Under the pieces are notes generated by a model. It did not search any database, was not told the origin of the DNA, and was given only the letters and a program-made list of their open reading frames with translations. The translations under genes and the position numbers were made by a program. Below are positions 8,594 through 37,919 of a stretch of 64,000 bases of DNA, piece after piece. Numbering within the stretch: the stretch's first letter is position 1; each line of letters starts with the position of its first letter. The DNA is from a virus: UHGV virus genome UHGV-0185973; one strand, 5' to 3'.

Positions 8594-9712
8594 ATGACTA
8601 CTAAGACTAAAGCACAAATTGATGCAGAAATCTATGCACTGGTTCAGGAAGGTAAACTGACCAAGACTGCAATTGCAATGAAGTACAACACTTCAACTCG
8701 TTCTGTAGGTCGTGCTGTTGAGCGTCATGAAGCAGTTCTGGCTGGTAAGAAGGGAGATTCAAAACCTGTTAAAACTCTGAAGGGTCTTGCAAAGACTGCT
8801 AAGAAAGCTAAAAAAGCTTCTGTAGCAAAACCTACCAAAGTTGCTAAAGCAGTTGAAAAGGCTGTTAAAACAGAACCAGTAAACGCACTGCATGAGGCAA
8901 TGCAGAGTAATACTCAAATTGAGTACATGATTACTGGAGACTCTGTTATTATGACGTTTGGTGCAGAATCTGAGATTGTTGAATCAACTCATCCAAACTT
9001 CACAGAAATCAAATTGGCAGTTGTAGCAGGTGAGTACAAGAAAGCTTTTGAATTGATGAATATTCGTAAAGCTATCGAAAACTTTACTCAGGGTGCTATC
9101 ACAATCAAAGGTGACAATCTGTACTACGGTGCTGTCCAAATGCGTTCTACTCTGGTTGACCGTATTCTGGATATGATGAAGAATGGCGATGCAGGATTTA
9201 CCCGTCTGGTAGCGTTCTTCGAAAAACTGATGGAAAACCCATCAAAAGACTCTGTAGAACAACTGTGGGGCTTCGTATCACATCTGGACGTAGAGATTGA
9301 CGAAGAAGGTTATATCATCGGTTGGAAGAAAGTCACTAGCCGTAATGGTAAGTTGTTTGACTCTCGCACCTGCAAAGTACCTAATGATTTGGGTAACATT
9401 GTAGAGATGCCTCGTTGGATGGTTGATAACAACCGTAACGTAACTTGTTCACAAGGACTGCATGTTGGTGCTTGGGATTATGTAACAAGCTTCTCAGGTG
9501 ATACGATTCTGAAAGTACGTGTTCACCCACGAGATGTTGTTTCAGTACCAACTGACTACCAAGATATGAAAATGCGAGCTTCACGCTATGAAGTAGCAGC
9601 AATTGTAAATGGTCGTCGTGAAGTTGTGAAAGAGTGGGATGGTAAAGAAGCACTCCATGTTGTTGTCGGTACTGCTGGTGAATTGATTTCTAAGCGCAAC
9701 CGTGAAATCTAA
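8594..9712 (+). CDS. rIIB: rIIB protein
   Basis: C-terminal half (LVDRILDMMKNGD..., CSQGLHVGAWDY, VRVHPRDVVSVPTDYQDMKMRASRYEV) matches conserved rIIB motifs. Confidence 0.85.
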   Translation: MTTKTKAQIDAEIYALVQEGKLTKTAIAMKYNTSTRSVGRAVERHEAVLAGKKGDSKPVKTLKGLAKTAKKAKKASVAKPTKVAKAVEKAVKTEPVNALHEAMQSNTQIEYMITGDSVIMTFGAESEIVESTHPNFTEIKLAVVAGEYKKAFELMNIRKAIENFTQGAITIKGDNLYYGAVQMRSTLVDRILDMMKNGDAGFTRLVAFFEKLMENPSKDSVEQLWGFVSHLDVEIDEEGYIIGWKKVTSRNGKLFDSRTCKVPNDLGNIVEMPRWMVDNNRNVTCSQGLHVGAWDYVTSFSGDTILKVRVHPRDVVSVPTDYQDMKMRASRYEVAAIVNGRREVVKEWDGKEALHVVVGTAGELISKRNREI

Positions 9713-9782: not shown

Positions 9783-9813
9783 TACCCCTATGTTTAATAA
9801 AATAGGAGAACCA

Positions 9814-10362
9814 ATGAAGAAATTCATTTTAGGTTTGTGCTTACTTTTTACAGCACAAGTAGCTGTGGCAACTGACTGCCCTGAGTTAACTATCAGCCAG
9901 AAAGTAAACATGCTTAAAGCTTACAACTATGGCGAAAACAAAATGGGAAAAGGTTGGGGTGTTACACTTGCAGCTATAGCCTTACAAGAGTCAGAGTTAG
10001 GTCTTAACCTAGAAAATAGAAAGACACATGATTATGGCATCTTCCAGAATCACTTGAAGACTGTTGTAAAGCGTAACAAAGTTAACCCTAATGTAGCTAG
10101 GAAGAAGCTTATCAGAGACTTTCAATATGCTGCACAGGAGACTCACAAAGAGCTTGAATTCTGGACTAAGGTACATGGTACACCAAAAGGAAAGAAGTCT
10201 CTTAAGAAGGTATTAGCCTCTTACAATGCAGGGTATAACTACAGTATTCCAAAAGCTAGACAGTACTCTAAAGATGTGTATAATAACATGCAAGTGCTTG
10301 CTCAATGTGAGTTTGCAACAAACATTCAAAAGGTAAAACATGAACGTATTAAGTCAATCTGA
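9814..10362 (+). CDS. secreted lytic transglycosylase-like protein (SLT domain)
   Basis: AGGAG RBS 5 nt before ATG 9814; signal peptide MKKFILGLCLLFTAQVAVA; AIALQESELG...YGIFQ matches the SLT catalytic-Glu motif. Confidence 0.6.
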   Translation: MKKFILGLCLLFTAQVAVATDCPELTISQKVNMLKAYNYGENKMGKGWGVTLAAIALQESELGLNLENRKTHDYGIFQNHLKTVVKRNKVNPNVARKKLIRDFQYAAQETHKELEFWTKVHGTPKGKKSLKKVLASYNAGYNYSIPKARQYSKDVYNNMQVLAQCEFATNIQKVKHERIKSI

Positions 10363-11523: not shown

Positions 11524-11548
11524 AGGCTCCTTCGGGAGCCTTTTTAAA
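11524..11548 (+). terminator. rho-independent terminator (GGCTCC/GGAGCC family)
   Basis: AGGCTCC-ttcg-GGAGCCT followed by TTTTT. Confidence 0.7.
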
Positions 11549-11563
11549 TTTCAAGGAGTACTA

Positions 11564-12448
11564 ATGAAGCCAATGTTCAAATATCTTGGTGGTAAAACAA
11601 GAATACTAAGAGAGTATGAGCGTTTAAATGTTTTTCCAAGCCACTGTAAAAACTTCTATGATTTGTTTTCAGGTGGAGGTTCAGTCGCTATTTGGGCTTA
11701 TAACAGATACCCAGAAGCAAAAATATTTATTAATGAGATAAACAAACACATTATAGGTCTTTACACAACTTTCAGAAATGACTATGAAAACTTCATGGAA
11801 GAATTTGAGTGCTTGTCAAAGAGGTACTTAGCATTACCTATGCAGGAAGAATATGCTGTGAAAGGTCAGCGACATAAACGTTTACGCTATAAAATGTATT
11901 ACAGTGTAAGGGAGGAACTCCTTTCACTTGGTGAAACAGGTATATATGACTATAGGTACTATGCAAGACAATTTTTCCTTCAAAAACTAAGTTTTGGTGG
12001 TGTATGGCAGACCACTAAAGAAATGAAAGGTCACTACGCAACACCTTGTGGGTATTTGCTGGAAGAAGAGATTTTCTTTACAAAAACTAAAGAGTCACTA
12101 TCCGAGTTCTACAGTTTTATCACCGATAAAAGGGTGATACTAAGTAGTGAGCCTTATGATATGGTTGACATAAAACATGGAGAAGGTACAGTTATTTACT
12201 GTGACCCCCCATATATCAACACCAACCAGAAATATGGTGCAAAGTTTGACATTGAAATGTCTGTAAAACTATGTGAAAATATGATTTCTTGGGGAGAGTT
12301 AGGTTCTAAAGTTTTGATGTCAAACTCTCAGTGGGATGGATGGACAAACTTAATCCCTGAAAATTTTAACTTGACAGAGGTTAGCCATTCATACACAATA
12401 CATGCACAGAGAAGCAAGGGTGTTAGCGAAGTAATTATTCATAACTAA
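11564..12448 (+). CDS. dam: DNA N6-adenine methyltransferase (Dam-like)
   Basis: AAGGAG RBS; SAM-binding motif DLFSGGGSV and catalytic IYCDPPY in the order typical of Dam-type enzymes. Confidence 0.75.
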   Translation: MKPMFKYLGGKTRILREYERLNVFPSHCKNFYDLFSGGGSVAIWAYNRYPEAKIFINEINKHIIGLYTTFRNDYENFMEEFECLSKRYLALPMQEEYAVKGQRHKRLRYKMYYSVREELLSLGETGIYDYRYYARQFFLQKLSFGGVWQTTKEMKGHYATPCGYLLEEEIFFTKTKESLSEFYSFITDKRVILSSEPYDMVDIKHGEGTVIYCDPPYINTNQKYGAKFDIEMSVKLCENMISWGELGSKVLMSNSQWDGWTNLIPENFNLTEVSHSYTIHAQRSKGVSEVIIHN

Positions 12449-12459
12449 GGTATCAAACC

Positions 12460-13272
12460 ATGACAAACAGTGTAAATGTAGCTCTAAACGGTAAGATTGT
12501 TAAAATGCAGACTAAGATTATCAGCGTAGAAGACTTTATTAATGAGAAACGCTACAAGGAAAATCCACGTCAACGAAATACATTAAAACGACTTAAGAGC
12601 AAACACCTTAATGGTGATGTATCACCAGACCAAACAGTTGTCCATATTGCTAAATTCGGTAGTTCACTGTTTATTATTGACGGCCACTCACGCAGAGAGG
12701 CATGGAAAGTTGGGAACCTTACACGACCAGAAGGATTGATTGCAGTTATATACCATGTAAACTCTATACTAGATGTTACAGATTTGTACACTCACTTTGA
12801 CTCTGAGTTAGCAAGAGAGAAACCTTCAGAAGTCTATTACGGAAACATGAAGATGATTTCCTTCAATCCAAAGTCAGAGTTGATGAAAGCATCTTGGGCT
12901 ACTGCTATTAAGTATGTTGCTGCATACTATGGGGTGCAACAGGTTTCTAACACTGAAACAGTCAATCACCTTGATGACTTTAAAAATGAGATGGAGCAAA
13001 TTGACTCTCTTGAAGTACAGCTCAAAGGTGTAGTAAACGCAAAACGTAAGTATTCCTCTGGTATTCGTGCAGCAATGCTAATTACATTACGGCTATATGG
13101 TGATGCTGCATTCTCCTTCTGGGAGGACTATAATGACTACTGCGAAGGTATGTCTAACAAATATGTTACAGAGGCATACCAACTAGCATTGCAAGCTGGT
13201 CGTGGAGCACAGGCTGACAAGCTATTGATGAATCAAGTAATTTCACTTGTCAACTACTTCAGCCAAGAGTAG
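12460..13272 (+). CDS. ParB/Srx-fold (DGQHR-like) domain protein
   Basis: Motif LFIIDGHSRREAW resembles the [IV]DGxxR signature of ParB-like nuclease / DGQHR domains. Confidence 0.4.
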   Translation: MTNSVNVALNGKIVKMQTKIISVEDFINEKRYKENPRQRNTLKRLKSKHLNGDVSPDQTVVHIAKFGSSLFIIDGHSRREAWKVGNLTRPEGLIAVIYHVNSILDVTDLYTHFDSELAREKPSEVYYGNMKMISFNPKSELMKASWATAIKYVAAYYGVQQVSNTETVNHLDDFKNEMEQIDSLEVQLKGVVNAKRKYSSGIRAAMLITLRLYGDAAFSFWEDYNDYCEGMSNKYVTEAYQLALQAGRGAQADKLLMNQVISLVNYFSQE

Positions 13273-13277
13273 TACAC

Positions 13278-13300
13278 AGGCTCCAGAAGGAGCCTTTTTC
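13278..13300 (+). terminator. rho-independent terminator (GGCTCC/GGAGCC family)
   Basis: AGGCTCC-agaa-GGAGCCT followed by TTTTT. Confidence 0.7.
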
Positions 13301-13320: not shown

Positions 13321-13422
13321 ATGATTAAAGTTATCAAGATAATACCATCATTGGTAATGCTCATAGTAGGGGTAGGTATTATACTTATGCTTTGCCCTGC
13401 TTTTTGGCCTTTTATCTTATAA
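13321..13422 (+). CDS. small hydrophobic peptide (33 aa), not in ORF track
   Basis: AAGGGG RBS; product MIKVIKIIPSLVMLIVGVGIILMLCPAFWPFIL is a single predicted TM helix. Confidence 0.3.
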   Translation: MIKVIKIIPSLVMLIVGVGIILMLCPAFWPFIL

Positions 13423-15519: not shown

Positions 15520-16311
15520 ATGGGTATTGTAAAAATTATCAAAGGGGATATCTTTGAAGCTTTTGACAATCAGAAGTTTGATATTATTGGTCACGGTTGC
15601 AACTGCATGAATCTTATGGGTGCAGGGATTGCAGCAACAATTGCAAAACGTTACCCAAAAGCTTATGAGACTGACCAAGAAGTCTACAACCTGTTTGGTA
15701 AAGACCACAAACCAGTAGCTTTAATGCTTGGAAATCTTAGTGTAGCGCGTTTTAAGCAGGGTCGTATTGCTAACCTATACACTCAGTTAGTTACTGGTAA
15801 AGATGCCCGTTACAATGCTTTAGAGGCTGCTTTAGAGCGACTAAACAACTACTGCAAAGTCAATCAGCTTAAGAAGGTTGGCTTACCAATGATAGGTGCA
15901 GGGATTGGTGGTCTTGATGGTATGGCTGTGCTATCTATCATTAACCAGACCATGAAGGATGTTGATGTTTACATGTACATCTATGAAGATAAGATGTTCA
16001 AGGAACTGACTAATCCTAAGTCTGGTTGGGAGAATCACAGTGAACCACAATTCTTCGATGGTGTTGCAAAGGTTGAAGAAGATGTAGTTACCCTGTGGGT
16101 GAAGCGTAAAGGGAAGGTACATAAAAGTAACCCTCCGGTTGAGAAGTATTCTCTAAGTAACGCTCTAGTTACCCACCCGTTGGCAGGGCATTGTATGAGA
16201 GGTGTAACATTTGGTGATGATGCTAATGTGTATATCCTTGCAAGCAACGACAAAGATGCTGAGGAAGCACTTTCCTGTGAAGTGATTAAGTTTGTAGAAG
16301 CACGTAACTAG
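15520..16311 (+). CDS. macrodomain protein (TARG1/DarG-like) with C-terminal extension
   Basis: N-terminus IKGDIFEA...FDIIGHGCNCMNLMGAGIAATIAKRYP matches the TARG1/OARD1 pattern (H-C-x-x-D-C-x-MGAGIA); about 100 aa of unassigned C-terminal sequence. Confidence 0.6.
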   Translation: MGIVKIIKGDIFEAFDNQKFDIIGHGCNCMNLMGAGIAATIAKRYPKAYETDQEVYNLFGKDHKPVALMLGNLSVARFKQGRIANLYTQLVTGKDARYNALEAALERLNNYCKVNQLKKVGLPMIGAGIGGLDGMAVLSIINQTMKDVDVYMYIYEDKMFKELTNPKSGWENHSEPQFFDGVAKVEEDVVTLWVKRKGKVHKSNPPVEKYSLSNALVTHPLAGHCMRGVTFGDDANVYILASNDKDAEEALSCEVIKFVEARN

Positions 16312-16766: not shown

Positions 16767-16819
16767 TTGCATCAACGGGGCAAGCAAGCCCCAACAATCC
16801 TAAACTGGAGAATCTAAAA

Positions 16820-17203
16820 ATGAAAAAATACTACATGCCTAAATTCATCAAGAAAGAAAACTTTCGTAATGCTCTGGAAAAATCTATGGGCGAACAATTC
16901 AAAGGAAAAATAATTGTTGTTCACGCTTACAATTTTAAGTATGATGTGAATGGAAACAAGATAAACCATTATACCGCTACAATGTTAGATGGTACACTAT
17001 CAGGAGAAAAAGCCGTCATAAATGCACTTGCTGGACGTGGAAAAACTCTCATCCGTTGCGATAAACGCCGCTATCAGGGTAGTGCTTATGGTTATGAAGA
17101 TGCAATCTATCATCTTGATAACATGGGTTACAATGTCGAAAAAGCTGGCGTATCTCAAATGATTGGCAGTGATGGCTATGTAACAATCTTTGAAATTAAC
17201 TAA
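16820..17203 (+). CDS. hypothetical protein (cassette ORF)
   Basis: Preceded by conserved CCTAAACTGGAGAATCTAAAAATG context. Confidence 0.55.
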   Translation: MKKYYMPKFIKKENFRNALEKSMGEQFKGKIIVVHAYNFKYDVNGNKINHYTATMLDGTLSGEKAVINALAGRGKTLIRCDKRRYQGSAYGYEDAIYHLDNMGYNVEKAGVSQMIGSDGYVTIFEIN

Positions 17204-17289
17204 TAAAGTACTTTACATGGGGTTTATAGTTCGATAGGATAAGCCCCAGATAAAGAACTTTATCACTAACCTAAACTGGAGTTTTAAAA

Positions 17290-17547
17290 ATGGCTACCAT
17301 TAAAAACATCGTAATTACTGCAAAATCCCGTGATGACGCTCGCGCAACTGCTAAAAAATTAAATGGTAAAGTAGTTGACAACGGAAAAAGTTCTGCTGTA
17401 AGATGGGGCGTAAAGACAGACAAGGAATTAACCTTGAAACATAGCTCTAAAAACCTGTTTAAAGGTGTACAGACTATCGGTAAAACAAATGTATTTACAA
17501 AACAAGGTTATAAAATGCACTTGGCATTAACTGACAATTTAATCTAA
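17290..17547 (+). CDS. hypothetical protein (cassette ORF)
   Basis: Preceded by full cassette 17205-17289. Confidence 0.55.
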   Translation: MATIKNIVITAKSRDDARATAKKLNGKVVDNGKSSAVRWGVKTDKELTLKHSSKNLFKGVQTIGKTNVFTKQGYKMHLALTDNLI

Positions 17548-17638
17548 AAAGTACTTTACATGGGGTTTATAAATTGCTAGTATAAGCCCCAGATAAAGAG
17601 CTTTACCACTAAACAATCCTAAACTGGAGAATCTAAAA

Positions 17639-18151
17639 ATGAAATTTGTTGAAAGTACCTTTGAAGTTCAAAAAGAAAAATTCACCATTATCTATGAGGC
17701 AATGAATATTTGTGAGCCTTCCCATTGTGTGGATAACTGGCAATTTACTGATGAGCATAAAGGCGGGGTTACAATCAAAGTTAAGAATGCAGAACGTAAC
17801 AGCTACAAATATGCAATTCCCACACATTACCCGCTTTCACAACTTACCAGTGACTACGCAAAACAGGGAAGGGATAACCCGTCATTGGAAGCTTACAAGA
17901 GCTTACAGGATGAGCTAGAAAGGGATTTACAGGCTAATAACTACATCTTGTATGCCTCAGTAGTTGACGCTGAAGGCAACACGGTTTTAAATAGTTTTTC
18001 CCTTGCGTATGGTTTCGATTGGTGCTATCTTGACGGGGAAGATTTAGATTCACGCTTAAAAGAGGAAGTCAGTAATTCAGGTGCTGAAGAGGAAGTTTTA
18101 GAGCGTTTGGAAGATTTAAAAGACAGTGTGATGAATATCTTTAACATTTAA
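17639..18151 (+). CDS. hypothetical protein (cassette ORF)
   Basis: Preceded by full cassette 17548-17638. Confidence 0.55.
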   Translation: MKFVESTFEVQKEKFTIIYEAMNICEPSHCVDNWQFTDEHKGGVTIKVKNAERNSYKYAIPTHYPLSQLTSDYAKQGRDNPSLEAYKSLQDELERDLQANNYILYASVVDAEGNTVLNSFSLAYGFDWCYLDGEDLDSRLKEEVSNSGAEEEVLERLEDLKDSVMNIFNI

Positions 18152-18235
18152 AAGTACTTTACATGGGGTTATCAGGCTGATAAGATAGCCCCAGATAAAG
18201 AGCTTTACCCAATAACCTAAACTGGAGATTCTAAA

Positions 18236-18532
18236 ATGTTTATCGCTGCAAATGTACGTTCCAAATTGAGCAAGCTTTTACAAGATATCAAATTTGTAGA
18301 ATCTATGCGCCGCACTCATGAAGTAACGGAGTGGTATCATGGGAAAATAAATGGTAAAGAAGTTGTTATTTGTATTTGGAATTTTTGTAAAGAATACAAA
18401 AAGCCGTTGCTTCAGGTGGATATCTATGATAATGCAAATAAAAATTCTGTTAAGTCTACAAGGGATATGATAGATTCTTTTGAGATTAGCCACACTGGCA
18501 GACTATTTCACAAAGGAAAATCATCATGCTAA
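18236..18532 (+). CDS. hypothetical protein (cassette ORF)
   Basis: Preceded by cassette 18152-18235. Confidence 0.55.
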   Translation: MFIAANVRSKLSKLLQDIKFVESMRRTHEVTEWYHGKINGKEVVICIWNFCKEYKKPLLQVDIYDNANKNSVKSTRDMIDSFEISHTGRLFHKGKSSC

Positions 18533-18849
18533 TTTCTGGAGTTGCCTTACTCATTGCTATTTTAGCACTGTATAAATCATGTAAAGCACATCATGCGGCA
18601 AGTGATGCAATCACAAGACAAATCAATAATAAACTTGTGACGTCCTTTCTAGAGCGTTTAAACGTGGAACAACTGAAGCGCTTAGAGATGGGCTTCAGAT
18701 TCAAGGCTGATACGTATCAGGTTAGCGACATTCTAAGCGGTGATTTTCAATTGATTGATGATTATAACGCTTTATTAAATGCTTTAAATATCAGTGACTT
18801 GAAAGATTATCATGCTGTTATTGTTCACGAAATAAGCAAACGAAAATAA
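18526..18849 (+). CDS. hypothetical membrane protein
   Basis: N-terminal TM segment MLISGVALLIAILALY; start overlaps upstream ORF. Confidence 0.45.
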   Translation: MLISGVALLIAILALYKSCKAHHAASDAITRQINNKLVTSFLERLNVEQLKRLEMGFRFKADTYQVSDILSGDFQLIDDYNALLNALNISDLKDYHAVIVHEISKRK

Positions 18850-18942
18850 ATTACTAAAAAGGGCTTGCAACTGATAGCAAAAACAAGTAAATTACTAATC
18901 AGACGGGCAAACAAGCCCACTTCCTAAACTGGAGAATCTAAA

Positions 18943-19215
18943 ATGTATACTACCAACAATAGCCGAACTTTAAATGTAACTTTAAAGCACTATGTAGAGG
19001 GTGTATTAAACTTTGAAGACTTGCAAGCAGAACAGCACTTGTTAGGTTGGCAAGTAGCAGGATTACAAAAAACTGCCACCGGATATGGGAAGAAAATCCC
19101 TACATCGTGGAAAGTGCGCTATTTAGGCAAGTTACGTAGAATTTATCAAGATGTTTATAGCAATAGTGGTGTAAGTTACATTATTGTTAACGGTAAGAAG
19201 TTGTATTTAATCTAA
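18943..19215 (+). CDS. hypothetical protein (cassette ORF)
   Basis: Preceded by variant cassette with the conserved RBS context. Confidence 0.5.
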   Translation: MYTTNNSRTLNVTLKHYVEGVLNFEDLQAEQHLLGWQVAGLQKTATGYGKKIPTSWKVRYLGKLRRIYQDVYSNSGVSYIIVNGKKLYLI

Positions 19216-19301
19216 TAAATTGCTTTACATGGGGTTATCAGGCTGATAAGATAGCCCCAGATAAAGAGATTTACCCAATAACCTAAACTGGAGATTCTAA
19301 A

Positions 19302-19703
19302 ATGACTGCTAATCGTGATATCGCTATTCTGAAAGCACGATTGACTGTAAATCGTATTAATTCTATCACATCCACAGCACCCGATGAGACATTGCATAAC
19401 ATTATCGGTAAAATTCAAGGTGTAATTTTAGACGTAGAAAACATCAAAAATTCACTTGCAAACGTTGCAAATGGTGCTACACTTGACGGCGCACAATATG
19501 AAATGGCTGATATGTTAGCCAAATCAAAAGTAATGAATAAAGAACTTGATTTGAAAATGTTTCGATTTGCTGTTAAAGTGTGGCTAGCTATTGAGTTCGA
19601 TGCTAATTTTGCAATTGCTGATTTCTTTGCTACATGGTTACAACGTAACCTGTCAAAACAAGACTTTGAAGATATCTGCGACACAATTTACGCAGAACTT
19701 TAA
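19302..19703 (+). CDS. hypothetical protein (cassette ORF)
   Basis: Preceded by cassette 19216-19301. Confidence 0.55.
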   Translation: MTANRDIAILKARLTVNRINSITSTAPDETLHNIIGKIQGVILDVENIKNSLANVANGATLDGAQYEMADMLAKSKVMNKELDLKMFRFAVKVWLAIEFDANFAIADFFATWLQRNLSKQDFEDICDTIYAEL

Positions 19704-19806
19704 AAAACGTTTGACACTAATTTTTAGATAGATTAAAGTACTAATCAGACGGGTATGCAATAACCTCCCCAGTAAGTGAAGTCCTTAAACTAGGAGATTC
19801 TAAAAA

Positions 19807-20010
19807 ATGGCTATTATTAACGGCTTAACCATCGAAAAAACACACATCAAAGACATTAAAGTTGGGGATACAGTTCTTTTTCACGGCGTAGAAAAAACTG
19901 TCACCGCAAAAGATATCAAAGAAGATTCTTTCATGGGTGTGACTCTATTCGGCGACTCTTATCGCTTAGGATACCTTGCAGTTTTAAAAGTTATCAAAAA
20001 TAACCGATAA
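19807..20010 (+). CDS. hypothetical protein (cassette ORF)
   Basis: Preceded by variant cassette (CTTAAACTAGGAGATTCTAAAAAATG). Confidence 0.5.
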   Translation: MAIINGLTIEKTHIKDIKVGDTVLFHGVEKTVTAKDIKEDSFMGVTLFGDSYRLGYLAVLKVIKNNR

Positions 20011-20096
20011 AGTACTTTACAGGGGGCTTAAAAGTTGATACCTTAAGCCCCAGATAAAGAGCTTTACCAAATCAATCCTAAACTGGAGATTCTAAA

Positions 20097-20654
20097 ATGA
20101 AATGCTTTCACGGTACTACTCAAGAAAACTTTTTAAACCTCATCAATGGCGGCGAAAAACCTACAGGTGCTTGGAATTGCTCTGATATGGATGGTTATTT
20201 TTACGTATACCCTGTCAGTAAGTTCTGCGACGTAGAAGAGATGGACGAAGAACAAATCACAAATGAAGGGTTGCGCAATGCTCTTGATAGTGCTACAATC
20301 ACAGCAGCTATCCAAATGAAAACTCAAAATATTGTTATCTTAGAACTTGAAATTCCAGAAGATGAGTTACAAGATGATTGGTCTTGTGAGAATATGAGTG
20401 ACATCGCAAGCTTTACAGAGCACTTTGATAAAGATTGGGTTAAAAAGGTTTATACAACTGAATTCAATGCAATGTATTCACCGTTTTTTGTTCCTAACTT
20501 ACAAAATCGTAATTTGGGATATATTGATGAAAAGCTTGAAGAGGTTGCAACATTCATCCAAAATGCCGATGATAGCTCAATCATCTATTGCAATATGCTG
20601 GACGCAATGCAAGAAAGCTTAACAGAAAGCGTTTTAAGCGACGTTTTAGCGTAA
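20097..20654 (+). CDS. putative ADP-ribosyltransferase (PARP-like H-Y-E class), cassette ORF
   Basis: N-terminus FHGTTQENFLNLINGG parallels the PARP signature WHGSRTTNFAGILSQG; downstream DGYFYVYPVSKF parallels GKGIYFADMVSKS; acidic ILELEIPEDE segment follows. Motif-level call only. Confidence 0.35.
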   Translation: MKCFHGTTQENFLNLINGGEKPTGAWNCSDMDGYFYVYPVSKFCDVEEMDEEQITNEGLRNALDSATITAAIQMKTQNIVILELEIPEDELQDDWSCENMSDIASFTEHFDKDWVKKVYTTEFNAMYSPFFVPNLQNRNLGYIDEKLEEVATFIQNADDSSIIYCNMLDAMQESLTESVLSDVLA

Positions 20655-20717
20655 ACCATACAATCACACTAACGACATTCAAAAGCCCCGCATAGGGGCT
20701 TACAAGGGGATTAAATC

Positions 20718-20954
20718 ATGTTAACAACAATCTATCTCATGCTTGCCGTTTGCTCTGGTGCAAATAATTGTCATTATGGCATTATGGAATCTTTCGAAGG
20801 CACTAAACAAAATGCAGTAGAGGCTTGCAATATTGCTAGACAGGACTACCCGAAATCGTCTATAATGGACTGTTATGTCTCACAAGGTGAAGACGAAAGC
20901 ACAGAATACTACGAAAACGTTAATGAAGATGAATTTTTAGAGATTTACAAATAA
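20718..20954 (+). CDS. hypothetical small secreted protein or lipoprotein
   Basis: N-terminus MLTTIYLMLAVCSG resembles a signal peptide with lipobox-like LAVC. Confidence 0.4.
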   Translation: MLTTIYLMLAVCSGANNCHYGIMESFEGTKQNAVEACNIARQDYPKSSIMDCYVSQGEDESTEYYENVNEDEFLEIYK

Positions 20955-21030
20955 AGTACTTTACATGGGGCTTAAAAGCTTGATACCATAAGCCCCAGAT
21001 AAAGAGCTTTCCTAAACTGGAGTTTTCACA

Positions 21031-21177
21031 ATGTCAAATATAGTTGAAATGGTTTTTAATAATCCGGTATTCTCAGAGATGATTTTCTCGTTTATCATGA
21101 TGTTACTTGTTAAAACCATGAAAAAAGCCGAAAAATTACACTCAAAGAAAAAAGCTATTGCAAACCGTTTTAAGTAA
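21031..21177 (+). CDS. small membrane protein (48 aa), not in ORF track
   Basis: Preceded by cassette 20955-21030; product has hydrophobic core MIFSFIMMLLV and basic C-terminus. Confidence 0.35.
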   Translation: MSNIVEMVFNNPVFSEMIFSFIMMLLVKTMKKAEKLHSKKKAIANRFK

Positions 21178-21224
21178 AGATATAGTATCAATCAAGCCCA
21201 CTTCCTAAACTGGAGAATCTAAAA

Positions 21225-21566
21225 ATGGCATACGTAACAATTATCACTGATAAAGAAAACTCTTCTTGGTCCACACAAGTAAGCGATAAAATGTCGCCTA
21301 TGCAATGCCTCAAATACTTTGAGCAATGGAACAGGGGGGAAGATGTAAGCCCTTTCCAAGTAATGCAGGTTGTACATGTTGACAATGACGGCAACAAAAC
21401 TACCCTTAACACTGAATACTATGCTACACGTTTTGAGACTCGCAAAGAAGCTATGCGGGAACTAAGAGAAAAGGGCTATAGTCACATTGCCGCTTTGATT
21501 TGGTCTGATTTGCTTAAAAAACAAGCATTAACCTACGTCAAGCCTGAAAAAATCTTTATAAACTAA
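21225..21566 (+). CDS. hypothetical protein (cassette ORF)
   Basis: Preceded by conserved RBS context. Confidence 0.5.
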   Translation: MAYVTIITDKENSSWSTQVSDKMSPMQCLKYFEQWNRGEDVSPFQVMQVVHVDNDGNKTTLNTEYYATRFETRKEAMRELREKGYSHIAALIWSDLLKKQALTYVKPEKIFIN

Positions 21567-21598
21567 TCAACAACTTACAAAATTCTTTGAAAAAACTG

Positions 21599-21627
21599 TT
21601 GACATTGCCCCTTGACAATAGTACATT
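21599..21627 (+). promoter_or_regulatory. sigma70-like promoter (TTGACA-N17-TACATT)
   Basis: TTGACA 21599-21604; second TTGACA 21612-21617; weaker -10. Confidence 0.35.
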
Positions 21628-21788
21628 TGTTCGAGGGGGTTTATCTAAAGGGATTCACTTAAAAGATTCTTTATAGATAAGCGAAAAAGTACTTGCAATC
21701 AGATTTCAAAACAAGTAAATTACTAAGCAACGGGGAGGGGATGACCTTCCCCACTAAGTAAAGTCCTTAAACTAGGAGATTCTAAAAA

Positions 21789-22037
21789 ATGTATACTAAA
21801 ACACAACTCAAAAGCATGGTAAACAGTGGTTTAATGAATGATGTTTATAAGGATTGCAGACGTTACGGGGAAATAAGAGAGATAATTGATTATGAGTATA
21901 CTCACACAATAAATTTCAAAACTAATGAAAAACGGACTGACTTTATAACTGTAGTGATTATTGAATACAAAAATTTATTGTGGACTTTTGAGCTGGTGAA
22001 AGGTGAGTGTATAGAAATCGAATACAAGGCCGCTTAA
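21789..22037 (+). CDS. hypothetical protein (cassette ORF)
   Basis: Preceded by variant cassette; last gene of the rightward block. Confidence 0.5.
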   Translation: MYTKTQLKSMVNSGLMNDVYKDCRRYGEIREIIDYEYTHTINFKTNEKRTDFITVVIIEYKNLLWTFELVKGECIEIEYKAA

Positions 22038-22091
22038 AAGTACTTTATAGGGGGATTAAAAGCTGACACCTTAAGCCCCCAAACACCTTTA

Positions 22092-22127
22092 CAGCCCCTT
22101 TTGTCTCTCTCATAGGGGCTTTTTTTA
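22092..22127 (+). terminator. rho-independent terminator
   Basis: AGCCCCT ... AGGGGCT stem followed by TTTTTTT. Confidence 0.65.
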
Positions 22128-22596
22128 CGTCTATGTAATAGCCCCTCTCAAATGCTTATATAAACCCTTCCCCTGTCCTTTCCAGAATCTTACAAGACCT
22201 TAAAAAGCAATAACTCTATAGCTTACTCTATAACCTCTTATCAAATCAACTTAAATATAAGCCCATAACCCGAAAGGGAAGGGCAATCCCTTAAACGCTC
22301 TATAACGCTCTATAACGGCTTATCAACTCAACTTAACCAATCATATTAACCCACTCTTAAAAGCCCTCTATAGAGCTTCATAGACCCTTAAAAGAATCTT
22401 ATAAGGGGTGTAAGCTTTATCATCTCGTTAGTATCTTGTGAATAGTTAAACAGGGGGCTTGTTATTAGCTTAAAAGTATGTTATAGGGGCTTAAAAGTAG
22501 CTATAAAGTTACGTAAAAGTATCGTAAATGCTAGCCCCCTTAACATTTCTTTAACAATTTCTTAACAATCCCTACATAGTTATGCTTATTAGAGAC

Positions 22597-34487: not shown

Positions 34488-34835
34488 ATGAAGACTTGTA
34501 TTAGGTGCAAACTTAGCAAGGATGAAAATGATTTCTACATGAAAGATGGTAGGAGAACTCATTCATACTGTAAAAAGTGTGTTAATGAGCAAACCATAGA
34601 AAGACAAAGAGCACTTAAACTTTCAGCTGTTGAGTACAAAGGTGGGGTTTGTCATGATTGTGGTAAAAGGTATCATCCAGCAGTGTATGACTTCCATCAT
34701 TTGAATCCTTCAGAGAAAGATTTTAACATTGGTCATAGAAAAAGTCTTAAGTTCTCTCAGGAGCTAAAGAACGAACTTGACAAATGTGTTTTGCTATGTT
34801 CAAATTGCCATAGGGTAAGACATGCAAAGTATTAG
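34488..34835 (+). CDS. HNH homing endonuclease
   Basis: CxxC zinc pairs (CIRC, CKKC, CHDC) and HNH core DFHHLNPSEKDFNIGHRK...LLCSNCHRVRH. Track ORF starts at 34443 inside the tRNA-like gene; ATG 34488 chosen. Confidence 0.75.
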   Translation: MKTCIRCKLSKDENDFYMKDGRRTHSYCKKCVNEQTIERQRALKLSAVEYKGGVCHDCGKRYHPAVYDFHHLNPSEKDFNIGHRKSLKFSQELKNELDKCVLLCSNCHRVRHAKY

Positions 34836-34972
34836 TTAGCAGATTGCTTAGACGACCTTAACGGGTCTCCTGTAAGGAGGTGGTCTGTATCTCATGTTTC
34901 CAGAGCATGTAAAAATATTCTGAGAAGGGGCTTTACAGTGTTGTGATAATACGGTAAGCTTCGAATTATAAT

Positions 34973-35055
34973 ATGGGACGATGTTAAGACTCTAAGGCAT
35001 GAGCAACGGCTTCCAACACCGTTTCAAAGGGGTTCAACTCCTCCGTCCCATGCCA
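34973..35055 (+). tRNA. atypical tRNA-like gene (anticodon CCA, Trp-like; oversized D region)
   Basis: Perfect acceptor ATGGGAC/GTCCCAT, loop TTCCAAC, T-loop TTCAACT, CCA; 26 nt between acceptor and anticodon stem (normal about 19). Confidence 0.45.
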
Positions 35056-35068
35056 AAGTCTTATTAGG

Positions 35069-35158
35069 GGTAGGTAGCGGCTAATGGTAGCCAAACTGTC
35101 TTGAAAACAGTTGCCACTGTAGAGATACGGTGAGGGTTCGACTCCTTTACTTACCGCC
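35069..35158 (+). tRNA. tRNA-Ser (anticodon TGA), class II
   Basis: Anticodon arm ACTGT-CTTGAAA-ACAGT, long variable arm, acceptor GGTAGGT/ACTTACC. Confidence 0.7.
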
Positions 35159-35406
35159 TAATAAGATTTAAAGCCGCGCTTCGTTCGGATGTTGCGTTAG
35201 GTTTCACTTCGTGTATTGTCGTACACGATGTTGAGAAAGCACCTAGTAGGTGTCACGGAGAAGAGATAGCATCAAGCTCTCCAAAGGTTCTAGTCACCGG
35301 ATTAAACAAGACTATGCAAAGACTGATTAGGTCTTTTTAGATAACTTCTGAGGCAAACTATACCATTGTTGCTTTGGGTCTTGGAAGTTCTCTACAAAGA
35401 TTTAAT

Positions 35407-35483
35407 GCACCTATAGCCCAATTGGAAGAGGCAGCAGACTTAGAATCTGTTCAGTGTGAGTTCGACTCTCTCTAGGTGTACCA
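35407..35483 (+). tRNA. class I tRNA with anticodon TAG (Leu codon CUA; isotype uncertain)
   Basis: Anticodon arm GCAGA-CTTAGAA-TCTGT, 5-nt variable loop, D-loop AATTGGAAGA, discriminator A, CCA. Confidence 0.6.
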
Positions 35484-35490
35484 AATTAAT

Positions 35491-35566
35491 GCAGGTGTAG
35501 CAAAATGGTTATGCGGCTGACTCTTAATCAGTAAGACGATGGGTTCAATTCCCTCCACCTGTACCA
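35491..35566 (+). tRNA. tRNA-Lys (anticodon CTT)
   Basis: Anticodon arm GCTGA-CTCTTAA-TCAGT; T-arm nearly identical to the TTT Lys tRNA; CCA. Confidence 0.65.
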
Positions 35567-35572
35567 AACATT

Positions 35573-35648
35573 GGGGATGTAGTTTACATGGTTAAAACAT
35601 AAGTTTTGCAAACTTAAGTACAGGGTTCAATTCCATGCTTCTCCACCA
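35573..35648 (+). tRNA. tRNA-Ala (anticodon TGC)
   Basis: Anticodon arm TAAGT-TTTGCAA-ACTTA, T-loop TTCAATT, CCA. Confidence 0.75.
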
Positions 35649-35654
35649 ATTAGT

Positions 35655-35729
35655 GCATCCATAGTTTAAACGGGAAAATTACAGTCTTCCAAACTGAGGT
35701 TGAGGGTTCGATTCCCTCTGGATGCTCCA
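35655..35729 (+). tRNA. tRNA-Gly (anticodon TCC)
   Basis: Loop CTTCCAA, T-arm GAGGGTTCGATTCCCTC, acceptor GCATCCA/TGGATGC, CCA. Confidence 0.75.
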
Positions 35730-35735
35730 ATTCAT

Positions 35736-35811
35736 GCTCCTATCGTATAACTGGCTATTACGGTTGTCTTGTAAGCAACTTATCAGGGTTCGAATCCTTG
35801 TGGGAGCACCA
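35736..35811 (+). tRNA. tRNA-Thr (anticodon TGT)
   Basis: Anticodon arm GTTGT-CTTGTAA-GCAAC, T-arm CAGGGTTCGAATCCTTG, CCA. Confidence 0.75.
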
Positions 35812-35905
35812 ATTTGAGGTCAAGTGAAAGACCGCTTGAGTCAACTGAAGACCGTAACAAATTCCACGGAGTTGAGTTAGCGGCACAACTTCAGACCTCT
35901 TTAAA
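35812..35905 (+). ncRNA. candidate structured small RNA between tRNAs
   Basis: About 90 nt with long-range complementarity (GAGGTC 35816-35821 with GACCTC 35893-35898; CTGAAG with CTTCAG) and no ORF or tRNA fold. Confidence 0.3.
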
Positions 35906-35980
35906 GCTCGCTTAGTTTATATGGTAAAGCCCCATCCTTACAAGTTGGTGAAGAAGGTTCAAGTCCTTCAGCGAGTACCA
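35906..35980 (+). tRNA. tRNA-Val (anticodon TAC)
   Basis: Loop CTTACAA, T-arm GAAGGTTCAAGTCCTTC, acceptor GCTCGCT/AGCGAGT, CCA. Confidence 0.75.
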
Positions 35981-35981
35981 A

Positions 35982-36059
35982 GTTCCAGTATCCCAATTGG
36001 CAGAGGATGCAAGCTCAAACCTTGTATTAGTGACGGTTCGAATCCGTCTTGGAACACCA
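35982..36059 (+). tRNA. class I tRNA with anticodon CAA (Leu codon UUG; isotype uncertain)
   Basis: Anticodon arm GCAAG-CTCAAAC-CTTGT, 6-nt variable region, T-arm GACGGTTCGAATCCGTC, discriminator A, CCA. Confidence 0.6.
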
Positions 36060-36076
36060 AATTTTAGGAGATTCCT

Positions 36077-36289
36077 ATGAAGCCTTATGGTAGACACGGT
36101 AAAGTTGAAATTGCAAGTTGTGGTTGCTGTGCTTCTCACGATGGTGAAGAAGATTACTACAAGTGGCGTACAGACCATCGTAGACGCTTTCTCAGAAGAG
36201 ATAAGAAGAAAGCTAGACAGGAATCTCGAAAAGATATTGCAGAATTAGTTCAAATGGATAGAGCAGCAACCTACGAAGTTGTTAGTTAG
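36077..36289 (+). CDS. small hypothetical protein; 3' end overlaps tRNA-Arg
   Basis: AGGAG RBS 6 nt before ATG; Cys-rich N-terminus (CGCC), basic middle; last about 50 nt overlap tRNA-Arg(ACG). Confidence 0.3.
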   Translation: MKPYGRHGKVEIASCGCCASHDGEEDYYKWRTDHRRRFLRRDKKKARQESRKDIAELVQMDRAATYEVVS

Positions 36290-36312
36290 GGGTTCGAATC
36301 CCTTATTCTGCA
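36239..36312 (+). tRNA. tRNA-Arg (anticodon ACG)
   Basis: D-arm GTTCAAATGGATAGAGC, anticodon arm GCAAC-CTACGAA-GTTGT, T-arm AGGGGTTCGAATCCCTT, acceptor GCAGAAT/ATTCTGC; CCA not encoded. Confidence 0.7.
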
Positions 36313-36333
36313 CAAATTTTAGAAGGTAATTAT

Positions 36334-36561
36334 ATGCGTAAACTCATTATTGAAAGGCATAAAGATGCTGACAAGATTGAAACAACACAAGTTGGGGACA
36401 CTGACTTCATTCTTGTAGGTTGGAAATGTGACCCAATAGCAGCTATGAAGGTTGTTCATGGTTTTGCAGGAATTGAATTTAATCAAATCATATTTGAAAC
36501 GCTATTACCAGAAAATCAGGATACGTGTAATAACGCATATATCCTGACAAGAGTTCGTTAG
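36334..36561 (+). CDS. small hypothetical protein within tRNA cluster
   Basis: 75-aa ORF between tRNA genes. Confidence 0.4.
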   Translation: MRKLIIERHKDADKIETTQVGDTDFILVGWKCDPIAAMKVVHGFAGIEFNQIIFETLLPENQDTCNNAYILTRVR

Positions 36562-36635
36562 GGGATTAGTTTACAAGGTTAAAACCTCGGTCTTTGAAAT
36601 CGAAGAAGTTGGTTCAATTCCAACATCCCCCGCCA
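36560..36635 (+). tRNA. tRNA-Gln (anticodon TTG)
   Basis: Anticodon arm TCGGT-CTTTGAA-ATCGA, T-loop TTCAATT, CCA. Confidence 0.7.
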
Positions 36636-36637
36636 AT

Positions 36638-36716
36638 GCTCCATTACTCCAATTGGCAGAGAGGCCAGACTTAAAATCTGTGTTATGTATCGGTTCGAAT
36701 CCGATATGGAGTACCA
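36638..36716 (+). tRNA. class I tRNA with anticodon TAA (Leu codon UUA; isotype uncertain)
   Basis: Anticodon arm CCAGA-CTTAAAA-TCTGT (near-identical to the TAG tRNA), 7-nt variable region, T-arm ATCGGTTCGAATCCGAT, discriminator A, CCA. Confidence 0.6.
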
Positions 36717-36722
36717 AATATT

Positions 36723-36798
36723 AGCAGTGTAGCATAACTGGCAATGCTCCAGCCTCTGAAGCTGAAAGATTAAGGTTCAAATCCTTACACTGCTGCCA
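36723..36798 (+). tRNA. tRNA-Gln (anticodon CTG)
   Basis: Loop CTCTGAA, T-arm TAAGGTTCAAATCCTTA, acceptor AGCAGTG/CACTGCT, CCA. Confidence 0.7.
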
Positions 36799-36829
36799 CT
36801 TCTAAGGGTTCTTACGAGAGTCCTTAAAT

Positions 36830-36906
36830 GTGGCCTTATCATAAATGGATAATGACCCATGCTGTGAACATGGTCTATACGGGTTCGATTCCCGTAGGTC
36901 ACCCCA
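36830..36906 (+). tRNA. tRNA-His (anticodon GTG)
   Basis: Anticodon arm CCATG-CTGTGAA-CATGG, T-arm ACGGGTTCGATTCCCGT, CCA. Confidence 0.75.
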
Positions 36907-36913
36907 ATTTTAA

Positions 36914-36990
36914 TAGCTCAATTAGCTTATATGGTTAAAGCGCGTGTCTGAAAAACATGAGAACAGGGTTCAAATCCCGATGGGCTACCA
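36914..36990 (+). tRNA. tRNA-Phe (anticodon GAA)
   Basis: Anticodon arm CGTGT-CTGAAAA-ACATG, T-loop TTCAAAT, CCA; exact 5' boundary uncertain by 1-2 nt. Confidence 0.65.
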
Positions 36991-37006
36991 ACTTTATAGG
37001 TGCATA

Positions 37007-37741
37007 ATGAAAGAGATGACAGGACAAGGTAAAGAGATTTTCAATCTCCTTAAATCCGGTAACGGGTTCTCTAACCCTCTTATTACTGGTGCAGCAGTTC
37101 TTGGTGGTACAGTTGCTGCTTCTCAGTCATTAATCACTTCAATTAGTTCTGTATCAGACCCAGCTACCCAGCAAATCCTTATTGCTGCTGGCTTGACAAC
37201 TGCCTTACTAAGCAGCTTTACAACAAGCCTTGGTAGCACCACTTCAACGACAACTACTTTAACTGACTATGGACAGAAGTCTGTAGATGAGTTTTCACAG
37301 CGTATGCAGGTAGCCAAAGGATACTCTAATGTTATGGGAGCAGCGGGTGAACAAGTTGGATGTACACCGTTTAGTGGAATCATGGGAGTTGCTACTGAAT
37401 ACGGTAACAAGGCTATGGATTTGATTAACACCTCCATAGATGCCGTAAACAGCGTTCTAAGCGACTTACAGGATGCAATTGATAAAGGACTAGCAACCAT
37501 CTCTGACCTCGCTACACAAGCTGTTACAGCGATTAATGAAGGTATGGCAAAGATTACTGCCTACGCTAATGAAGTGGCTCAGATGATTGCAGACGAAGCA
37601 GCAATGATTGCAGAGTATCTAAAAACCAATATTAATGGTTTCCTTGCAAATGTTTTACCAGATTGGTTTAACGATGATTGTAAGACGGGTGTAATTGATA
37701 CAATTGCAACTCCAGAGATGAAAGAAGCTCTAAACAAATAA
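37007..37741 (+). CDS. hypothetical Ser/Thr-rich protein
   Basis: Start moved to ATG 37007 (AGGTG RBS) because track ORF 36944 begins inside tRNA-Phe. Confidence 0.45.
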   Translation: MKEMTGQGKEIFNLLKSGNGFSNPLITGAAVLGGTVAASQSLITSISSVSDPATQQILIAAGLTTALLSSFTTSLGSTTSTTTTLTDYGQKSVDEFSQRMQVAKGYSNVMGAAGEQVGCTPFSGIMGVATEYGNKAMDLINTSIDAVNSVLSDLQDAIDKGLATISDLATQAVTAINEGMAKITAYANEVAQMIADEAAMIAEYLKTNINGFLANVLPDWFNDDCKTGVIDTIATPEMKEALNK

Positions 37742-37744
37742 TTT

Positions 37745-37837
37745 GGAAGATTAACCCTAAAAGGTAAGGGAGCAGTTTGCTAAACTGCCAGTAGCTGAGA
37801 AATTGGTGTACCAGTTCAAGTCTGGTATCTTCCTCCA
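37745..37837 (+). tRNA. tRNA-Ser (anticodon GCT), class II
   Basis: Acceptor GGAAGAT/ATCTTCC, anticodon arm GCAGT-TTGCTAA-ACTGC, long variable arm, CCA. Confidence 0.75.
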
Positions 37838-37843
37838 AATTTT

Positions 37844-37919
37844 GCATTGGTGTCAGAAATGGATATGTACCTGTCTGCAAAACAGGTTTATGAGGGTTCG
37901 AGTCCCTTCCAATGCTCCA
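37844..37919 (+). tRNA. tRNA-Cys (anticodon GCA)
   Basis: Anticodon arm CCTGT-CTGCAAA-ACAGG, T-arm GAGGGTTCGAGTCCCTT, acceptor GCATTGG/CCAATGC, CCA. Confidence 0.75.

Follow-up and report, generated by a model that had tools for sequence, protein, structure and literature searches.

A two-gene cassette in a Felix O1-like phage

The UHGV virus genome UHGV-0185973, analysed here as a single stretch of 64,000 nucleotides (the window), carries at positions 11,564 to 13,272 two adjacent genes, ORF A and ORF B, which an earlier reading of the sequence had described as a Dam-type methyltransferase paired with a ParB/DGQHR-like protein. The source phage is a Felix O1-like myovirus of the subfamily Ounavirinae. 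Both open reading frames (ORFs), the separate ribosome-binding site (RBS) of ORF B and the motifs quoted in the original prediction read exactly as described. ORF A and ORF B are real, conserved genes, with orthologues in public data at 86–94% identity, and the 3 kb around them match 258 phage records at ~84–87% nucleotide identity, nearly all of them Felix O1-like phages of Escherichia, Salmonella, Shigella and Citrobacter. The locus is laid out as follows, with lengths in amino acids (aa) and nucleotides (nt).

11524..11541, + strand: upstream terminator-like hairpin AGGCTCC-TTCG-GGAGCCT with a T run, ending the conserved 154-aa gene and forming the left edge of the cassette
11553..11558, + strand: RBS AAGGAG of ORF A, 5 nt before the ATG, read from the sequence
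11564..12448, + strand: ORF A, 294 aa, predicted orphan D12-class (alpha-type) N6-adenine DNA methyltransferase (PF02086, PHROG 56)
12447..12450, + strand: RBS AAGG of ORF B, overlapping the ORF A stop codon, 9 nt before the ATG
12460..13272, + strand: ORF B, 270 aa, PHROG 2615, with a predicted N-terminal ParB/sulfiredoxin (Srx)-fold domain and a C-terminal helical domain
13278..13295, + strand: downstream terminator-like hairpin AGGCTCC-AGAA-GGAGCCT with a T run, its stem that of the upstream hairpin, forming the right edge of the cassette

The gap between ORF A and ORF B is 11 nt long and terminator-free, and no promoter-like site was recognised between the upstream terminator and ORF A. 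The gene order in related phages is rIIA, rIIB, lysin, polynucleotide kinase, the 154-aa hypothetical gene, i-spanin and o-spanin. Citrobacter phage Moogle, which lacks the two genes, has a single copy of the hairpin and nothing else between the 154-aa gene and i-spanin, whereas in the window and 14 database phages the pair lies between two hairpin copies; this duplication identifies the pair as an accessory cassette. Orthologues of ORF A occur in 15 records, and the cassette as a whole in 14–15 of the ~258 related records, or roughly 5–6% of sequenced relatives. Carriers include tootiki (MN850647), JLBYU28 (OK272472), SP116 (NC_027329) and REP5/REP7, while Bas63 (MZ501086) and VpaE1 are relatives that lack it. 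Together, ORF A and ORF B form one transcription unit, a terminator-bounded accessory cassette at an insertion hot spot between the conserved 154-aa gene and the spanin genes. Base composition is uninformative about a foreign origin, the GC content of the cassette (37.6%) lying within the range of the window (39.2 ± 1.9%).

The cassette is present in records MG065664 and MG065668 (‘Campylobacter phage A132/A126’), which are ~86% identical to this enterobacterial Felix O1-like region; their Campylobacter host label is doubtful and possibly reflects contamination or mislabelling. Between the downstream terminator and the i-spanin gene lies a 33-aa hydrophobic ORF, MIKVIKIIPSLVMLIVGVGIILMLCPAFWPFIL (window 13321–13422, + strand). 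The segment that contains it recurs in just two further phage records, ESh19 and pEC-M719-6WT.1; since neither has the cassette, it is a second insert, independent of the first and stacked beside it at this hot spot.

The predicted methyltransferase and its target

ORF A covers the whole of PF02086 (profile positions 1–253 of 253 by residues 7–279; E = 1.4e-22, 81.1 bits against a cutoff of 22), matches PHROG 56 at 2e-49 and is matched by PADLOC models of Type II and orphan methyltransferases. Word-indexed protein searches returned near-identical proteins only, for ORF A as for ORF B. Three elements of ORF A matter here.

11660..11686, + strand: S-adenosylmethionine-binding motif I DLFSGGGSV (ORF A aa 33–41)
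11990..12055, + strand: predicted target-recognition hairpin SFGGVWQTTKEMKGHYATPCGY (ORF A aa 143–164), aligning to the GATC-reading hairpin of DpnM/Dam
12203..12214, + strand: catalytic motif IV DPPY (ORF A aa 214–217)

The FxGxG core of motif I (F35-S-G-G-G39) precedes D214-P-P-Y217, which is the alpha-class order. Both motifs are kept in an alignment of ORF A with methyltransferases that adjoin relatives of ORF B, and G37 is invariant. Against solved structures, a profile of ORF A and its relatives finds DpnM (2.8e-35), T4 Dam (4e-21) and E. coli Dam (~6e-15). Judged by its sequence, ORF A is a predicted Dam/DpnM-fold, D12-class N6-adenine DNA methyltransferase with intact catalytic motifs, in keeping with its first description as Dam-like, and it would be expected to transfer methyl groups to adenine N6.

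With E. coli Dam, T4 Dam and DpnM, ORF A shares the D12 fold, the FxGxG and DPPY motifs, their alpha-class order and the hairpin between them; it differs within that hairpin, where W-Q-T-T replaces the arginine-containing segment of the GATC Dams. The arginine conserved in the hairpins of all three enzymes, which in T4 Dam and E. coli Dam reportedly reads the guanine of GATC, is absent from ORF A in an alignment that sets DpnM NFNGLYRVN...FNVPYGRY against SFGGVWQTT...YATPCGY. An alternative alignment, counted back from the conserved proline, puts Thr/Lys of ORF A at this place, where the subfamily shows no conserved basic residue; given a length difference of two residues in the hairpin, neither placement lines up a conserved arginine or lysine. 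The closest methyltransferases adjoining ORF B relatives keep a W-Q-[TS]-T signature here. ORF A scores 101.7 bits against the Dam subfamily model TIGR00571, under its curated cutoff of 114.85, and 25.8 bits against the E. coli Dam equivalog NF008152, for which the cutoff is 441.

GATC does not occur in the 64,000 bp of the window, compared with 175 ± 11 occurrences in dinucleotide-preserving shuffles and 199 expected by a Markov estimate, and the cassette itself is GATC-free. The count is also zero in the examined stretches of JLBYU28, Moogle, GEP101, ESCO56 and Erwinia phage M7, and the Felix O1-like phages VpaE1 and Alf5 have been reported to lack GATC (PMC4690856, PMC5477317). Since the absence is common to the great majority of relatives without the cassette, it is a trait of the lineage and not an effect of the cassette. 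Because the window holds no GATC and the hairpin arginine is missing, any site that ORF A methylates on phage DNA is some sequence other than GATC; together with the sub-cutoff TIGR00571 score, this removes GATC from the sites at which virion DNA had been suggested to be methylated.

Four short metagenomic contigs carrying the closest divergent modules (L093, L094, L095 and L096) contain no GATC either, against 6–7 expected in each, and the W-Q-[TS]-T module seems to occur preferentially in GATC-avoiding phages. The modules on these contigs have strong sigma-70-like promoters (TTGAC...TATAAT). Several 6-bp palindromes are absent from the window as well (ATGCAT, 0 vs 15.8 expected; CCATGG, 0 vs 7.8; AGGCCT, 0 vs 6.4), and CCGG, GGCC and CTAG are down to 0.5–0.6 of expectation.

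These data bear on the possibility that ORF A is a true GATC Dam that acts on host or co-infecting DNA only, for example on mismatch repair, replication control or methylation-sensitive defences, with ORF B helping it or exploiting its product. We consider this improbable. The closest solved relatives, DpnM, T4 Dam and E. coli Dam, are indeed all GATC enzymes, and a phage free of GATC in its genome, its cassette and its L093–L096 counterparts would fit such a division of targets; however, ORF A falls under the Dam subfamily cutoff and lacks the hairpin arginine, and GATC is absent from most cassette-less relatives too, so that its absence is not a consequence of the cassette. Enterobacterial hosts methylate GATC with their own Dam, which makes the benefit of a second such enzyme doubtful.

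The ORF B family and its predicted fold

ORF B has no match in Pfam, NCBIfam or PADLOC; a DUF1514 match in Pfam at 15.8 bits lies under the cutoff and was disregarded. It does match PHROG 2615, a family of unassigned function (E = 8.4e-68, residues 2–267 on profile positions 2–288 of 353). An exhaustive HMMER search of 1.84 billion representatives of clusters at 50% identity found at least 487 relatives at E ≤ 1e-3, and 147 at E ≤ 1e-10. The 150 best representatives of this B family, when scanned, showed no informative Pfam domain, PF02195 included, and no methyltransferase fusion. ORF B divides as follows.

12460..12813, + strand: predicted ParB/Srx-like domain (aa 1 to ~118)
12562–12576, + strand: NPRQR motif (ORF B aa 35–39)
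12673–12705, + strand: IIDGHSRREAW motif (ORF B aa 72–82)
12814..13269, + strand: predicted C-terminal all-helical domain (aa ~119–270), with conserved E120, D182 and F220-W221

The residues conserved in the family are N35-P-x-Q38-R39, H49-L50, D74-G75-H76-[TS]-R78, W82, P90, Y110, D114 (the last two within a YTHFD motif at aa 110–114), E120, D182 and F220-W221. R78 is invariant in 150/150 representatives, and D74, G75, H76, R39, W82, Y110, D114 and D182 are kept in at least 90% of the 150.

An AlphaFold model from the single sequence was unusable (pLDDT 37), and only the model computed with the 150-sequence alignment (pLDDT 96, pTM 0.85) was used. Foldseek ranks ParB-CDP (6sdk, E = 1.1e-3), Myxococcus ParB, Caulobacter ParB and PadC highest among PDB entries, followed by SspE and sulfiredoxin. 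By two methods the best PDB neighbours all belong to the ParB/Srx superfamily, KorB included, with BrxU and SspE as weak neighbours. Among viral models, the fold matches are the family itself, then ParB-like nuclease, DNA-sulfur-modification-associated (DndB-like) and GmrSD N-terminal (DUF262) proteins. Residues 1 to ~118 of ORF B are thus predicted to adopt the ParB/sulfiredoxin fold. For the C-terminal domain there was no consistent PDB fold match, no nuclease match and no helix-turn-helix (HTH) call.

The comparison of sequence profiles by hhalign was not significant for the B family against either a ParB_N+HTH protein (probability 0.7%) or the DGQHT protein of cyanophage S-RIM2, so the ParB assignment comes from structure and not from sequence similarity. 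The label ParB/DGQHR-like accordingly divides into two parts: the ParB/Srx fold proposed for the second protein is present over residues 1–118 in the alignment-based model, but the sequence models ParB_N, DndB and DUF262 do not match. A phmmer match in the PDB to designed TIM barrels (E ~3e-6) was rejected as an artefact because it sums four copies of ~9 bits each, with individual E values near 10.

The N-terminal fold of the ParB clamps Spo0J, KorB and Noc matches ORF B, and we take NPxQR and DGHSR to be the counterparts of the ParB motifs Box I (PNPxQPR) and Box II (GERRxRA). R78 would then be equivalent to the Box II arginine, a correspondence drawn from motif position rather than from residue-level superposition, and ORF B may bind a nucleotide. 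Unlike a partition ParB, ORF B has no HTH, no detectable C-terminal dimerisation domain and no adjacent parA, the neighbours of the cassette being the 154-aa hypothetical gene and the spanins, and no parS-like repeat is tied to the cassette. The repeat families of the window are lineage-wide promoter/hairpin/RBS (terminator) modules at 16.8–22.5 kb, tRNA genes and tail-fibre coding repeats. The intergenic modules, considered as parS-like sites for ORF B, were rejected since they occur in 289 related phages with or without the cassette; with the repeats in 289 related records and the cassette in 14–15, the proposal that the pair acts on repeat-rich non-coding DNA is not supported either.

The same structural neighbours raise a different possibility, that ORF B is a DndB-like, nucleotide-dependent DNA-binding regulator, which represses or times the modification gene or limits methylation and gives no catalytic help. 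The clade of DndB/DGQHR and DUF262 proteins (the latter including GmrS, SspE and the BrxU N-terminal part) has the fold of ORF B and its QR ... DGxxR arrangement, and is likewise linked to DNA-modification or modification-sensing systems; DndB itself has been described as a ParB-like protein that represses the dnd modification operon in an ATP-dependent manner (PMC12704722), and proteins associated with DNA sulfur modification are among the viral models nearest to ORF B. However, the ORF B motif is DGH[ST]R where the clade has DGQHR or DGQQR, and no DndB, DGQHR or DUF262 model of NCBIfam or Pfam matches. ORF B lacks an HNH/DUF1524 nuclease domain, and dnd, ssp and BREX genes are absent from its neighbourhood. 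Nor does the locus look like a regulated operon of this type: between the upstream terminator and ORF A there is no recognisable promoter or operator belonging to the cassette, no operator-like inverted repeat was noted, and no HTH domain was detected in ORF B. We therefore regard a purely regulatory ORF B as unlikely.

Linkage of B-family genes to methyltransferases

We compared 86 B-family loci from isolate phages, viral contigs and bacterial genomes, which form 53 groups at 70% B identity; part of them were retrieved with a motif-selected alignment subset. Gene calls in the high-GC metagenomic loci were crude (longest non-overlapping ORFs), which can only lower the observed methyltransferase adjacency. 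Pfam counts were taken from the 25 commonest families, and single-member methyltransferase families may be missing from test and control alike. Among the matches listed, 8 of the 86 genes adjoining B in these 53 groups belong to PF01555, 2 to MT-A70, 1 to D12 and 1 to PF05869 Dam, and three UPF0020 matches overlap PF01555 proteins; at the control positions ±3 and ±4 of the same loci, PF01555 accounts for 2/150 genes. Methyltransferases among the matches listed therefore make up 12/86 adjacent genes vs 2/150 control genes (Fisher p = 1.4e-4). A local profile search places them almost always on the strand of B and <110 nt from it, sometimes overlapping, and in about a dozen loci a SNF2/DEAD helicase gene stands before B and a methyltransferase gene after it. 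The DNA methyltransferases adjacent to B come from at least four unrelated Pfam families.

The closest relatives outside the Felix O1-like group repeat the arrangement of the window. Three of the four have a D12 partner: P0004, P0005 and P0006, on short metagenomic contigs, are 39%, 37% and 33% identical to ORF B, and each abuts a D12 methyltransferase 37–39% identical to ORF A. B precedes the methyltransferase in two of these loci and follows it in one, with spacings from an 8-nt overlap to ~100 nt. The parallel divergence of both genes, together with the change of order, indicates selection for keeping the pair together. The fourth relative adjoins a second B-family gene; on this contig, that of P0003 (L008 61–1902), the two B-family paralogues are in tandem, the second containing FYLLDGHSRRYAW. 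Among isolate phages, Klebsiella phage BIS47 has a D12 methyltransferase gene immediately preceded by a B-family gene (hmmsearch E = 2e-14), and in Synechococcus phage Syn19 a B-family gene comes after an RsaI-like endonuclease gene and a methyltransferase gene annotated ‘dam’, in that order. The pairing of B-family genes with methyltransferases, as first proposed for the window, is real and recurrent and does not reflect chance.

In Synechococcus phage S-RIM2 (L090 1949–5158), the genes for a D12 methyltransferase and a helicase are immediately preceded by one for a 347-aa protein with a QR...DGQHT pattern. This protein resembles the DGQHR type of the ParB superfamily but lies outside the B family; the locus would be a further, independent pairing of a ParB-like protein with a methylase.

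Some Felix O1-like phages have a second cassette of similar build, which occupies another hot spot, between rIIB and lysin, and is also flanked by terminator hairpins. In phage GEP101 (L005 2926–4955) it encodes a 299-aa protein, a 279-aa B paralogue and a 77-aa protein. The 299-aa protein has a weak, borderline match to PF02384 (N6_Mtase) and is annotated as an rRNA methyltransferase in Escherichia phage ESCO56, which carries this methylase-like and B-paralogue cassette in addition to ORF A. The window lacks it, with 78 nt between rIIB (8594–9712) and lysin (9790–10362).

That ORF A and ORF B are merely co-mobile and have unrelated functions, ORF B being for example an independent anti-defence or replication factor, seems to us rather unlikely in view of this linkage. 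Methyltransferases are enriched about tenfold next to B relative to nearby control positions, the D12–B pair persists at 33–39% identity with its order flipped and its frames overlapping or nearly abutting, and the same methyltransferase families occur elsewhere in physical fusions with ParB folds (PMC12704722). Simple co-mobility would nevertheless account for the many B genes that sit without a methyltransferase in DNA-metabolism neighbourhoods, for ESCO56, which has A without B, and for the unrelated small inserts stacked at the hot spots of these phages.

Possible role of the cassette

The reading that we tentatively favour, with slightly less than even confidence, is that the cassette is a mobile self-protection module, in which ORF A methylates a non-GATC site and ORF B is an accessory subunit, the whole being a split form of a ParB-methyltransferase. 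ORF A would act on replicating phage DNA, and the likely benefit would be that newly replicated phage DNA is shielded from one or more host restriction systems. Such protection is plausible. Felix O1-like phages are apparently unmodified and restriction-sensitive (PMC4690856, PMC8594841), phage Bas63 having a remarkable sensitivity to restriction-modification systems (PMC8594841), so that a methylase cassette would be useful on particular hosts. ORF B, as an accessory factor that binds nucleotide and associates with DNA, would load, activate or tune ORF A on double-stranded DNA; it would be the two-gene counterpart of the ParB part of fusion proteins and would resemble the ParB-like activator that a phage thymine dioxygenase requires on such DNA. 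We infer the direction of this functional link between ORF A and ORF B.

Two known arrangements stand close to this proposal. A survey of the ParB-CTPase fold describes frequent fusion to N6_N4, Methyltransf_23, MT-A70 and UPF0020 methyltransferase domains, an enrichment of phage ParB-methyltransferase fusions in prophage regions, and binding of CTP, ATP or GTP through the Box II arginine; its search model was PF02195, and it would therefore have missed the B family (PMC12704722). Like the cassette, the fusions join a ParB/Srx-fold module to a DNA adenine methyltransferase on a mobile element, and their partners (PF01555 with UPF0020 overlap, and MT-A70) are families that adjoin B genes. Unlike them, the cassette consists of separate genes and its methyltransferase in the window is of the D12 type (alpha-class); in contrast to the ParB part of the fusions, ORF B is unrecognised by PF02195 and has a 150-aa helical domain of its own.

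The second arrangement is a phage thymine dioxygenase that needs a stand-alone, cognate ParB-like protein for activity on double-stranded DNA; a stable complex of the two was not trapped, and the ParB was suggested to stabilise the enzyme on DNA (PMC13229309). In this pair, 5mYOX176/ParB176 (PMC13229309), as in ORF B, a stand-alone ParB fold with no obvious DNA-binding domain stands beside a post-replicative DNA-modifying enzyme. The partner of ParB176 is a Fe/2OG dioxygenase and that of ORF B a methyltransferase, and ParBs of the ParB176 type keep a recognisable ParB N-domain and a C-terminal dimerisation domain, unlike ORF B, for which activation is only proposed. The association of ParB folds with DNA methyltransferases and the existence of ParB-like activators of DNA modification enzymes are thus already known. 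What is new is a large ParB-fold sequence family that domain databases do not recognise and that has its own helical domain, the consistency with which its genes stand, unfused, next to orphan methyltransferases of several unrelated classes, and the finding that the ‘Dam-like’ partner in the source phage cannot be a GATC self-methylase.

Several observations weigh against an accessory role for ORF B: (i) In ESCO56 (OM386665; L097 4062–5100) the ORF A orthologue is intact at 85% identity, and ORF B has an internal deletion of ~725 bp that leaves only its last ~105 nt before the downstream hairpin; ORF B is therefore not indispensable for the phage, although a B paralogue is present elsewhere in that genome. 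(ii) No methyltransferase was detected near about two thirds of the B-family loci sampled. Neighbours there include metallophosphoesterases, RecT, integrases, a clamp-loader-like ATPase, dUTPase and a canonical ParB_N+HTH protein. The B family can thus act in the absence of a methyltransferase, or with different partners, for example metallophosphoesterases, SNF2/DEAD helicases or clamp-loader-like proteins. (iii) With partners from several non-homologous methyltransferase families, a single conserved protein-protein interface is less likely. (iv) Non-specific nicking has been reported for ParB-fold domains attached to methyltransferases, which fits a nuclease equally well.

This last point leads to the main rival of the accessory-factor reading, in which ORF B would be a DNase or nickase under nucleotide control and ORF A would mark the phage's own DNA, the two forming a restriction-modification or exclusion module directed at unmethylated DNA of the host or of competing phages. 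According to an older synthesis, ParB domains, including one fused to a B. cereus adenine methylase, can be nucleotide-regulated, non-specific nickases or DNases, with activity of this kind documented for the ParB/Srx proteins Osa and B. cereus Bce_0392 (PMC5512222). The predicted pocket of ORF B contains His and acidic residues (D74, H76, D114, E120, D182), linkage to many unrelated methyltransferase families, as seen for B, is typical of nuclease genes, and loss of B with the methyltransferase kept, as in ESCO56, is the usual route of decay of such modules; the RsaI-like endonuclease gene in the Syn19 neighbourhood points the same way. However, ORF B matches no PADLOC defence or restriction model and no nuclease family of Pfam, a sequence-reading domain is not recognisable in it, and its fold is equally that of nucleotide-triphosphate switches that are not nucleases. 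Most B genes, moreover, have no adjacent protective methyltransferase, which would be self-harming for an enzyme that cuts unmethylated sites. On balance we regard a nuclease as a real but clearly less probable alternative.

Returning to the accessory-factor reading, a broader version can be formulated, to which we attach low confidence. The B family as a whole may consist of nucleotide-gated ParB-fold loaders or activators that serve unrelated orphan methyltransferases (alpha, beta, MT-A70 and PF05869) and make methylation of double-stranded DNA fast or processive.

Other features of the window

Several further features were noted outside the cassette. At 15520–16311 (+ strand) a 263-aa ORF occupies the position annotated ‘contains Macro domain’ or O-acetyl-ADP-ribose deacetylase in relatives, and is a candidate gene for reversal of ADP-ribosylation. 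The intergenic modules form a dense array at 16780–22500, in which AAAGTACTTTACATGGGG...CCCCAGATAAAGAGCTTTACC...CCTAAACTGGAGAATCTAAAATG correspond to a promoter-like box, a hairpin and an RBS; they precede many small genes, and 289 related phage records each contain several copies. Positions 32625–37919 carry 23 clustered tRNA genes on the + strand. At 58613–58734 and 60957–61162 there are 27-nt coding repeats encoding a GAHNHT-like peptide repeat, probably in tail-fibre genes.

Implications

The split version offers a clean genetic handle on the role of ParB in the common phage ParB-methyltransferase fusions, with natural comparators in the separate genes, the deletion of the ParB-fold gene in ESCO56 and the cassette-less sister phages. 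With its at least 487 clusters at 50% identity, which neither Pfam nor the survey based on PF02195 detects, the B family widens the range of ParB-like proteins so far described. Owing to the absence of GATC, the annotation ‘Dam’ is misleading about the target of such genes. Where Felix O1-like phages are used in therapy or typing, the set of restriction-proficient strains open to infection may plausibly depend on a mobile methylase cassette. If the B family does provide general loaders or activators of orphan methyltransferases, the source phage would be marking adenines at a non-GATC site in a genome that has rid itself of GATC, and, taken with the dioxygenase-ParB pairs, the ParB fold would be a common licensing subunit for post-replicative modification of viral DNA.

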